Below, in pieces: positions 3,994 to 32,374 of a stretch of DNA of 64,000 bases. Both the position numbers and the translations under genes were made by a program. A model generated the notes under the pieces. The model searched no databases and was not told the DNA's origin. It saw nothing but the letters and a program-made list of their open reading frames with translations. The stretch's first letter is position 1; each line of letters opens with the position of its first letter. The stretch lies in assembly GCF_055900595.2 (NCBI RefSeq), contig NZ_CM148325.1, one strand, 5' to 3'.

Positions 3994-4150
3994 GTAGGCC
4001 TGATAAGACGCGGCAAGCGTCGCATCAGGCATTGATGTCGGATGCGGCGTAAACGCCTTATCCGACCTACAAAATCACGCTAAATCAGGCTATTGCGCAG
4101 TCTGGCGTAGGCCTGATAAGACGCGGTAAGCGTCGCATCAGGCATCCACA
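3994..4150. repeat. REP/BIME cluster (repeated gtaggcctgataagacgcg...cgcatcaggc palindromic units) between convergent yjcO and gltP
   Basis: Two near-identical copies of the aggcctgataagacgcggcaagcgtcgcatcaggca unit plus gccggatgcggcg...ccttatccg units; typical enterobacterial REP sequence. Confidence 0.7.
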
Positions 4151-4183
4151 CATTGCCGGGTGTATGTCCCCGGCAATCCTCAA

Positions 4184-26135: not shown

Positions 26136-28958
26136 ATGGATAAGATCGAAGTTCGGGGCGCCCGCACCCATAATCTCAAAAACATCAACCTCGTTATCCC
26201 CCGCGACAAGCTCATTGTCGTGACCGGGCTTTCGGGTTCTGGCAAATCCTCGCTCGCTTTCGACACCTTATATGCCGAAGGGCAGCGCCGTTACGTTGAA
26301 TCCCTTTCCGCCTACGCGCGGCAGTTTCTGTCACTGATGGAAAAGCCGGACGTCGATCATATTGAGGGGCTTTCTCCTGCCATCTCGATTGAGCAGAAAT
26401 CGACGTCTCATAACCCGCGTTCTACGGTGGGGACAATCACCGAAATCCACGACTATTTGCGTTTGTTGTTCGCCCGCGTCGGTGAGCCGCGCTGCCCGGA
26501 CCACGATGTACCGCTGGCGGCGCAAACCGTCAGCCAGATGGTGGATAACGTGCTGTCGCAGCCGGAAGGTAAACGCCTGATGCTGCTCGCGCCAATCATT
26601 AAAGAGCGCAAAGGCGAACACACCAAAACGCTGGAAAATCTGGCAAGCCAGGGTTACATCCGTGCTCGTATTGATGGCGAAGTCTGCGATCTTTCCGATC
26701 CGCCGAAACTGGAACTGCAAAAGAAACATACCATTGAAGTGGTGGTTGATCGCTTCAAGGTGCGTGACGATCTCACCCAACGTCTGGCAGAGTCGTTTGA
26801 AACCGCGCTGGAGCTTTCCGGTGGTACCGCGGTAGTTGCCGATATGGACGATCCAAAAGCGGAAGAGCTGCTATTTTCCGCCAACTTCGCCTGCCCAATT
26901 TGCGGCTACAGTATGCGTGAACTGGAACCACGCCTGTTTTCGTTTAACAACCCGGCGGGTGCCTGCCCGACCTGTGACGGCCTTGGCGTACAGCAATATT
27001 TCGATCCTGACCGCGTGATCCAGAATCCGGAACTGTCGCTGGCAGGTGGTGCGATCCGAGGCTGGGATCGCCGCAACTTCTATTACTTCCAGATGCTGAA
27101 ATCGCTGGCAGATCACTATAAGTTCGACGTCGAAGCGCCGTGGGGCAGCCTGAGCGCGAATGTGCATAAAGTGGTGTTGTACGGTTCTGGCAAAGAAAAC
27201 ATTGAATTCAAATACATGAACGATCGTGGCGATACCTCCATTCGTCGTCATCCGTTCGAAGGCGTGCTGCACAATATGGAGCGCCGTTATAAAGAGACGG
27301 AATCCAGTGCGGTACGCGAAGAATTAGCCAAGTTTATCAGCAATCGCCCGTGCGCCAGCTGCGAAGGAACGCGTCTGCGTCGGGAAGCGCGCCATGTGTA
27401 TGTCGAGAATACGCCGCTGCCTGCTATCTCCGACATGAGCATCGGTCATGCGATGGAATTCTTCAACAATCTCAAACTCGCAGGTCAACGAGCGAAGATT
27501 GCGGAAAAAATTCTTAAGGAGATTGGCGATCGCCTGAAATTCCTCGTTAACGTCGGCCTGAATTACCTGACACTTTCCCGCTCGGCAGAAACGCTTTCTG
27601 GCGGTGAAGCCCAGCGTATCCGTCTGGCGAGCCAGATTGGTGCGGGCCTGGTTGGCGTTATGTACGTGCTCGATGAGCCGTCTATCGGCCTGCACCAGCG
27701 CGATAACGAGCGCCTGCTGGGTACGCTTATCCATCTGCGCGATCTCGGTAATACCGTGATTGTGGTGGAGCACGACGAAGACGCGATTCGCGCCGCTGAC
27801 CATGTGATCGACATTGGCCCGGGCGCAGGTGTACACGGCGGTGAAGTAGTCGCGGAAGGTCCCCTGGAAGCGATTATGGCCGTGCCAGAGTCGTTAACCG
27901 GACAATACATGAGCGGCAAACGCAAAATTGAAGTGCCGAAGAAACGCGTTCCGGCGAATCCGGAAAAAGTGCTGAAGCTGACAGGCGCACGTGGTAATAA
28001 CCTGAAAGACGTGACGCTGACGCTGCCAGTCGGTCTGTTTACCTGCATCACAGGGGTTTCAGGTTCCGGTAAATCGACGCTGATTAACGACACACTGTTC
28101 CCAATTGCCCAACGCCAGTTGAATGGTGCGACCATCGCCGAACCGGCACCTTATCGCGATATTCAGGGGCTGGAGCATTTCGATAAAGTGATCGATATCG
28201 ACCAAAGCCCAATTGGTCGTACTCCGCGTTCTAACCCGGCGACCTATACCGGCGTGTTTACGCCTGTGCGCGAACTGTTTGCGGGCGTACCGGAATCCCG
28301 TGCGCGCGGTTATACGCCAGGACGTTTCAGCTTTAACGTCCGTGGCGGACGCTGCGAAGCCTGTCAGGGCGACGGCGTGATCAAAGTGGAGATGCACTTC
28401 CTGCCGGACATTTACGTACCGTGCGACCAGTGCAAAGGCAAACGCTATAACCGTGAAACGCTGGAGATTAAGTACAAAGGCAAAACCATCCACGAAGTGC
28501 TGGATATGACCATCGAAGAGGCGCGTGAGTTCTTTGATGCGGTGCCAGCTCTGGCGCGTAAGCTGCAAACGTTGATGGACGTTGGTCTGACGTACATTCG
28601 CCTGGGGCAGTCCGCAACCACACTTTCTGGTGGTGAAGCCCAGCGCGTGAAGCTGGCGCGTGAGCTGTCAAAACGCGGCACCGGGCAGACGCTGTATATT
28701 CTCGACGAGCCGACCACCGGTCTGCACTTTGCCGATATTCAGCAACTGCTCGACGTACTGCATAAACTACGCGATCAGGGCAATACCATCGTGGTGATTG
28801 AGCACAATCTCGACGTGATCAAAACCGCTGACTGGATTGTCGACCTGGGACCGGAAGGCGGCAGTGGTGGCGGCGAAATCCTCGTCTCCGGTACGCCAGA
28901 AACCGTCGCGGAGTGCGAAGCATCACACACGGCGCGCTTCCTTAAGCCGATGCTGTAA
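26136..28958 (+). CDS. uvrA: Excinuclease ABC subunit A (940 aa)
   Basis: ATG at 26136; tandem ABC ATPase domains with Walker A motifs ([18 protein letters not shown]) and zinc-finger Cys clusters. Confidence 0.98.
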
Positions 28959-32123: not shown

Positions 32124-32374
32124 GCGATGGTTCTCCAGGTTTACGGGCAGGTGGTTAAAACACAATAAACCGGAAGGTGGGGAAGATCGAGAGGATGTTC
32201 AGGGGTGAACGACAATTAGCAACAAAAAGTGACCAATGACAAACGCACATTCGCCAGAGGCACGACCTTTATAACAGCATGAAATAATATCAATTTATTG
32301 AATTAGTAAGATTTTATTAGCCGGATAGGCATTCATACCACATCCGGCACAGATAATCAGATATTACAGAACGA

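Follow-up and report, generated by a model that had tools for sequence, protein, structure and literature searches.

The window, i.e. the whole stretch of 64,000 nucleotides that we have analysed, holds 17 REP units in seven intergenic clusters (nine y units, six z2 units, one z1 unit and one y/z2-like hybrid), and these clusters are almost certainly E. coli REP sequences organised as BIMEs, to which the mechanisms published for such elements, and spread by TnpA-REP and recombination, would apply. The family, its subtypes, its hairpin and predicted RNA structure, its extragenic placement and its polymorphism between strains have all been observed directly in the present analysis.

Megablast places the window on the E. 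coli chromosome, from fdhF to pgi, and the part from 40000 to 64000 has 100% identity with E. coli strains 100117 and Z0117EC0005. The gene order (fdhF, yjcO, gltP, nrf, acs-yjcH-actP, ..., plsB, ubiA, malM-lamB-malK, malEFG, psiE, yjbH-E, pgi) is the reverse of that of MG1655 at about 4.233-4.298 Mb.

Identification of the repeat family

The units have been searched for with nhmmer profiles that were built from the window's own units and applied to both strands, together with a motif search. The profiles have recovered the 17 units and nothing comparable elsewhere in the window, and the consensus palindrome GCC(G/T)GATG...CTTATC(C/A)GGCCTAC is seen in all seven intervals. The tail motif CTTATCMGGCCTAC, with up to two mismatches, has 16 matches against 0.51 expected (0 of 100 shuffles get to 16), all of them within the seven clusters, the 17th unit (54126-54157) being degenerate; the head motif occurs 35 times in the window against 8.0 expected. 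The first-pass annotation had reported near-identical palindromic units at seven intervals, and on the profiles and the tail motif all seven do hold REP-type units; the coordinates it gave are accurate to a few bases, except that the cluster between malE and malF (cluster E) runs to about 54157 and not to 54145.

The self-dot-plot that had been suggested as a check has been run as a self-BLASTN of the window, in which the units align as a family: 70 of the 78 off-diagonal hits join the seven clusters, and every pair of clusters is linked. The other eight hits are local self-complementary hairpins (18299-18356, 45332-45355, 1439-1458 and 61878-61906), a duplication within uvrA and a single marginal match; at the sensitivity of self-BLASTN, the family is indeed the only dispersed one in the window, as had been claimed. 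The uvrA duplication is a 48-nt direct repeat (75% identity, 27582-27629 and 28611-28658) that corresponds to the two ABC ATPase modules and is not a dispersed element. The hairpin at 18299-18356, located between convergent yjcF and yjcE, is a 58-bp palindrome whose two 27-nt arms pair perfectly around a loop of 4 nt; only about 30 genomes match it at 90% or more, 4088 at 80-90%, and about 1300 are without a match. We have considered this palindrome as a second dispersed repeat and rejected it: it is a single locus, its two apparent places per genome being its two strands.

The ERIC2 primer sequence has no match in the window with up to three mismatches, and no curated REP features are listed in the RefSeq MG1655 annotation that we have used. 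Outside the window, a 500-bp query that holds three units is matched by 5425 of 5426 complete E. coli genomes, the median number of places per genome being at least 31-34 (megablast); the copy number of REP in E. coli is given as about 600 (PMC3333891).

Structure and subtypes of the units

Each unit is an imperfect palindrome of 29-37 nt with a GTAG/CTAC foot, and y units and z2 or z1 units follow one another in opposite orientations. A unit is assigned to the plus strand when GCC...CTAC reads on the plus strand; with this convention, the classification by orientation that had been proposed earlier has been carried out for all 17 units, each typed as plus or minus. The description of the units as near-identical is accurate within the subtypes, with three identical y units and with z2 units that vary mostly in the loop, but not between them, as y and z2 units share only about 70% identity.

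The alignment of all units supports a common hairpin: pairing at its 11 stem pairs holds in 97.1% of the cells and drops to 27-41% once the partner is shifted by 1-3 columns. Changes on both sides are seen at four of the stem pairs, and the compensatory changes from y to z2 are G-C to U-A at pair 4-30 and G-C to A-U at pair 11-23. The CTAC end is present in 15 of the 17 units, the exceptions being the second y unit of cluster D (CCAG) and the degenerate y unit of cluster E (CTGG), and nearly all units have an internal stem mismatch, where alignment columns 8-9 (GC) are located opposite columns 25-26 (TT); both the mismatch and the CTAC foot are needed for TnpA-REP binding (PMC3333891). Folding of the transcribed strand as RNA gives z-scores of -4.9 to -7.4 in six clusters and -1.9 in cluster C, and the hairpins of individual or paired units are present in the predicted MFE folds. 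All units are located between annotated CDS, with one 47-aa PGAP "hypothetical protein" over cluster F as the sole overlap.

Every criterion that applies at the level of sequence supports the identification of the units as E. coli REP/PU elements organised as BIMEs. The REP/PU and BIME elements of Stern 1984, Gilson 1991 and Bachellier 1999, as these are summarised in PMC3333891, are matched in unit length, in the imperfect palindrome with its internal mismatch, in the GTAG/CTAC foot, in the three subtypes (y, z1 and z2), in alternating inversion, in extragenic sites and in high genomic copy number. Nothing of substance differs; what is peculiar here is the hybrid at 57280-57316, the degenerate y unit at 54126-54157 and a degenerate unit near alr.

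Arrangement of the clusters at the gene junctions

Five of the seven clusters are located at convergent gene ends (A and C) or within operons (B, D and E), in line with the earlier statement that this is mostly the case, and the malE-malF and lamB-malM placements had been named correctly; cluster G is located between co-directional transcription units and cluster F in a divergent spacer. The units and linkers are the following:

Cluster A, between convergent yjcO and gltP
3994-4030, minus strand: z2 unit (48.2 bits), with its GTAG end 1 nt past the yjcO stop
4031-4036, no strand assigned: S linker ATTGAT (6 nt), joining the GCC ends of the z2 and y units
4037-4070, plus strand: y unit, a variant specific to this locus (GTCGGAT...ATCCGAC) whose stem change is compensatory (nhmmer, alignment)
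4071-4106, plus strand: L-like linker of 36 nt, between CTAC and GTAG ends (alignment to cluster C)
4107-4143, minus strand: second z2 unit (nhmmer), at a 113-bp period from 3994 that is the strain-variable module

Cluster B, between acs and yjcH
14573-14594, plus strand: small imperfect hairpin with the REP-like head GCCGGATGCG
14612-14647, minus strand: z2 unit (45.4 bits)
14655-14689, plus strand: y unit (36.7 bits), forming a BIME-2 pair with the z2 unit across a 7-nt S linker

Cluster C, between convergent plsB and ubiA
45223-45256, plus strand: y unit (42.2 bits), 12 nt past the plsB stop
45257-45292, plus strand: L linker of the BIME-1, 36 nt, containing ATTCAATAAATTG
45293-45321, minus strand: short z1 unit, 29 nt (nhmmer, tail motif, alignment)

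Cluster D, between lamB and malM in a minus-strand operon
49806-49839, plus strand: y unit (45.2 bits)
49854-49889, minus strand: z2 unit (45.0 bits)
49897-49930, plus strand: second y unit, tail CCCAG (35.9 bits), 9 nt past the lamB stop on the transcribed strand

Cluster E, between malE and malF
54034-54067, plus strand: y unit (45.2 bits), 11 nt past the malE stop
54083-54118, minus strand: z2 unit (46.4 bits)
54126-54157, plus strand: degenerate y unit (14.0 bits), stopping a few bases short of the malF ribosome-binding site

Cluster F, in the divergent spacer between psiE and yjbT
57244-57277, plus strand: y unit (40.9 bits), intact here
57280-57316, minus strand: hybrid whose outer stem is y-type and whose length is z2-like (14.6 bits with the Y profile, 13.2 bits with the Z profile)

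Cluster G, downstream of pgi and upstream of yjbE, both on the minus strand
61976-62012, minus strand: z2 unit (45.1 bits)
62020-62053, plus strand: y unit (45.2 bits), 29 nt past the pgi stop on the transcribed strand

The gap between a unit and the stop codon is 1 nt at yjcO, 9 nt at lamB, 11 nt at malE and 12 nt at plsB, and 26-46 nt at the remaining ones.

The IHF consensus is WATCAANNNNTTR, and the linkers of clusters A and C each carry an IHF-like site at one mismatch from it (AATCAGGCTATTG in cluster A, ATTCAATAAATTG in cluster C); the alignment of cluster A, including its 36-nt linker, with cluster C scores 41 against a shuffle maximum of 14. Two further palindromes, neither of them REP, are found beside these clusters: the hairpin CATTGCCGGGTGTATGTCCCCGGCAATCC at 4151-4178, between cluster A and the gltP stop, which is conserved in K-12 with changes, and the perfect 24-nt palindrome AAAGCCGGATGATCATCCGGCTTT at 45332-45355, between the ubiA stop and cluster C, which is probably the terminator hairpin of ubiA. 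The small hairpin of cluster B is located 7 nt past the acs stop and may be the remnant of a REP unit; the K-12 equivalent is 12 nt shorter and without the hairpin. The degenerate y unit of cluster E still folds as a hairpin, and its K-12 orthologue scores 21.3 bits. In cluster F, the hybrid has the exact tail motif, and the CTAC and GTAG ends of the doublet are 2 nt apart.

Some other features of the window deserve mention in their own right. The 47-aa ORF that PGAP places over cluster F in the identical genome (57274-57417, minus strand) has its start upstream of yjbT and runs across the REP unit; it is probably spurious, since it is not annotated in strains without the REP doublet. Near psiE, the gene xylE is absent: a 1,792-bp stretch of MG1655 (about 4240739-4242530), which begins directly past psiE and extends through the MalH sRNA/malG terminator, is missing from the window (at 56625-56718), and malG and psiE are only 93 bp apart. 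In the pgi-yjbE spacer, a match to STnc430 (Rfam, 61765-61913, plus strand) that is above the gathering score directly adjoins cluster G; other Rfam hits above the gathering score are the fdhF SECIS element (1474-1528) and the sRNA SraL/RyjA (21941-22080). At 46969-48549 (minus strand), the window has an intact 526-aa ORF of the SopA family where K-12 has the yjbI pseudogene.

By the published definitions, BIME-1 is composed of y and z1 with a conserved long L linker, often with an IHF site, in single copy, BIME-2 is composed of z2 and y with a short S linker, in tandem, and atypical BIMEs are chimeras of both classes (PMC3333891). Judged by their composition, the clusters at acs-yjcH, lamB-malM, malE-malF and pgi-yjbE (B, D, E and G) class as BIME-2: they share z2 and y units joined at their GCC ends by a 7-nt S linker, with a further y unit across a 14-15-nt linker in D and E, and their arrays are short here (2-3 units). 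The plsB/ubiA cluster (C) reads as a BIME-1 by the same definitions, having the layout y-L-z1 of these elements (also known as RIP/RIB elements), a single copy and a 36-nt L linker whose IHF-like core, one mismatch off WATCAANNNNTTR, is a putative site. Cluster A differs from it by its z2 units and tandem copies; we have filed it as an atypical chimera, because it has z2 units and the S linker but its 36-nt linker is L-like. Cluster F is an odd doublet that no class fits neatly.

An eighth locus at alr

One more locus is found outside the seven clusters:

32280-32348, minus strand: decayed y unit with an L-like linker (alignment score with cluster C 23, against a shuffle maximum of 17)

The decayed y unit itself (32316-32348, minus strand) is found 26 nt downstream of alr and reads GCCGGATGTGGTATGAATGCCTATCCGGC; the linker shares the exact 14-mer AATTCAATAAATTG with the L linker in cluster C. 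At the orthologous site, K-12 carries an intact y unit that scores 33.9 bits, and the copy of the window departs from it by five changes in about 30 nt. Since the locus aligns to cluster C and is intact in K-12, it is a decaying member of the family, one that the first-pass annotation had missed.

Variation between strains

The comparison of copy number with other strains, also suggested earlier, has shown that clusters A, D and F vary while the malE-malF cluster is fixed. Unit counts in K-12, scored on three K-12 stretches (MG1655), are equal to those of the window at clusters B, C, D, E and G, and the layout of cluster C is also the same.

At cluster A, K-12 has five 113-bp modules and a terminal z2 unit, i.e. 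11 units against three in the window, with the variant y unit (GTCGGAT...ATCCGAC) present in all five copies. In a spread sample of complete genomes, the spans of this cluster (688, 801 and 914 bp, and longer split matches) differ by one-module steps, so that the z2-y-L modules at yjcO/gltP range from none to at least five across strains; the closest strains are one module longer than the window. The number of tandem BIMEs is known to vary by strain, and the gltP-yjcO BIME itself has been used as a TnpA-REP substrate (PMC3333891).

The minority allele of cluster D is shorter by 91 bp, which is the spacing of its two direct y units. Cluster F has an intact doublet allele (501 bp span), which is rare and belongs to the lineage of the window, a K-12-like allele (481 bp span) with a 19-bp deletion inside the y unit, and empty alleles (409-426 bp), which occur on both left-flank haplotypes in many strains. 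The span of cluster E is 501-502 bp in all 29 chromosomal records that were taken from across the species, and 5413 of 5425 genomes cover the query for this cluster by at least 80%.

Mechanism and alternative explanations

Judging from what has been published on these elements in K-12, we infer that the clusters would act on mRNA, on ribosomes and, through gyrase and IHF, on DNA. At the level of mRNA, PMC5927463, in the part where it cites Newbury 1987, reports for K-12 that the malE-malF element protects malE mRNA from 3'-to-5' exonucleases after downstream endonucleolytic cleavage, with half-lives of 3.5 min for malE and 1 min for malFG. The transcribed hairpins would block 3'-to-5' exonucleases and protect the upstream message, by which malE mRNA would be raised relative to malFG. 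By analogy, the same protection is likely for lamB versus malM, for acs versus yjcH-actP and for the 3' ends of pgi, yjcO and plsB, given the position and the fold of the units. REPs located up to 15 nt from a stop codon stall ribosomes and lower expression, as stated in the part of PMC12306157 that cites Liang et al. 2015; the units that are located less than 15 nt from the stop (yjcO, lamB, malE and plsB) could stall terminating ribosomes and damp the upstream gene.

At the level of DNA, the z2-S-y pairs of BIME-2 would be preferred sites of cleavage by gyrase, whose cuts are enriched in BIME-2 and there mostly in y units (PMC6379681, with Espeli and Boccard 1997), and the L linker of the plsB/ubiA BIME-1 would be an IHF site, as L linkers of BIME-1 are documented to bind IHF (PMC3333891). 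The first-pass annotation had stated that such elements stabilise mRNA and bind gyrase and IHF; stabilisation stands for malE-malF in K-12 on the cited part of PMC5927463, but the scope given to gyrase and IHF was too broad. The attribution to IHF would narrow to the BIME-1 L linker, i.e. to plsB/ubiA only, with the L-like linkers at yjcO/gltP and alr, and the attribution to gyrase to BIME-2, mainly its y units. For the plsB/ubiA BIME-1, a role, if any, is more likely to be at the level of DNA, since it folds only weakly better than shuffles (z = -1.9). Neither protection of mRNA nor an effect at a stop codon is applicable to cluster F, located as it is between divergent promoters, and this copy may have no host function, since it is absent from many strains. 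To our knowledge, no individual role has been demonstrated for most REP copies in the literature.

Spread and amplification would have occurred through the REP-associated tyrosine transposase (TnpA-REP, encoded elsewhere) and through recombination between direct copies, to which we attribute the 113-bp and 91-bp steps between strains. The explanation that comes closest to this one is that the units are selfish, non-autonomous mobile DNA, i.e. REPIN-like doublets moved by RAYT/TnpA-REP, whose copies are functionless and whose positions mark tolerated insertions. It is compatible with the reading as REP sequences organised as BIMEs on origin and spread, and differs from it only on host benefit. 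The variation at psiE/yjbT between present, truncated and absent forms, in which the empty alleles occur with either flank haplotype, the decay of the alr unit, the high variability of the yjcO/gltP array and the cleavage and recombination of BIMEs by TnpA-REP in vitro (PMC3333891) all speak for it, and the doublet of cluster F is present or absent as a block, as in the Pseudomonas REPINs/RAYTs (PMC3116915), where inverted REP doublets are the indel unit; the sequence family is different there, and the mobilising TnpA-REP gene is located outside this window. We nevertheless consider a wholly functionless family rather unlikely: the malE-malF span is constant in 29 of 29 records, a role of that element has been demonstrated in K-12 (PMC5927463, in the part cited above), and the compensatory differences that preserve the hairpin have been kept.

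Less probable still is that the clusters are small RNA genes of the naRNA4 type, whose Y-linker-Z2 transcripts bind HU, bridge DNA cruciforms and condense the nucleoid. The Y-linker-Z2 module of REP325/naRNA4 (Rfam RF02564) is the same as that of the units, and four z2-S-y pairs score 74.7-79.8 bits against a gathering score of 59.5, with the hit over cluster B at 14615-14686; moreover, REP325 is a BIME-2 array of which naRNA4 constitutes a single repeat, and most REPs are reported to be transcribed (PMC4550694). The experiments, however, concern REP325 between yjdM and yjdN, outside the window (PMC4550694), i.e. a different locus; clusters C, E and F do not match RF02564, and the Rfam model in effect covers any BIME-2 pair and not a distinct gene. 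As the hits fall exactly on the z2-S-y pairs, and naRNA4 is a REP325 repeat, they restate the classification of these pairs as BIME-2.

For the yjcO/gltP array in particular, the number of modules might be a strain-variable dial for YjcO output and for local supercoiling and IHF occupancy, as opposed to neutral length variation. The routes would be ribosome stalling and protection of the mRNA 3' end, with the array starting 1 nt past the yjcO stop; we consider this improbable. That the palindromes are ordinary intrinsic (Rho-independent) terminators with only a superficial likeness is scarcely credible and has been rejected: the units are GC-rich hairpins past stop codons, some at convergent gene ends, but a terminator scan of 45100-62200 (clusters C to G) has flagged none of them, since no T-run follows any, the malM terminator (48725-48744) and the malG/MalH terminator (56695-56712) are located apart from the units, three clusters are inside read-through operons, and the identity between copies is far above what a shared function needs.

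Significance

The earlier finding is confirmed and was correctly interpreted, but it concerns an ordinary, textbook element that is already known. Its importance beyond correct annotation is low, because REP/BIME have been known since the 1980s and malE-malF is the textbook mRNA stabiliser. In practice, masking the clusters or labelling them as repeats is advisable, as PGAP calls a probably spurious 47-aa ORF over one of them, and an Rfam naRNA4 match at a locus of this kind should be taken to mean "BIME-2 pair" and not a particular sRNA gene. Their polymorphism in length also makes the clusters useful in the typing of strains, and a possible source of artefacts in assembly or alignment.
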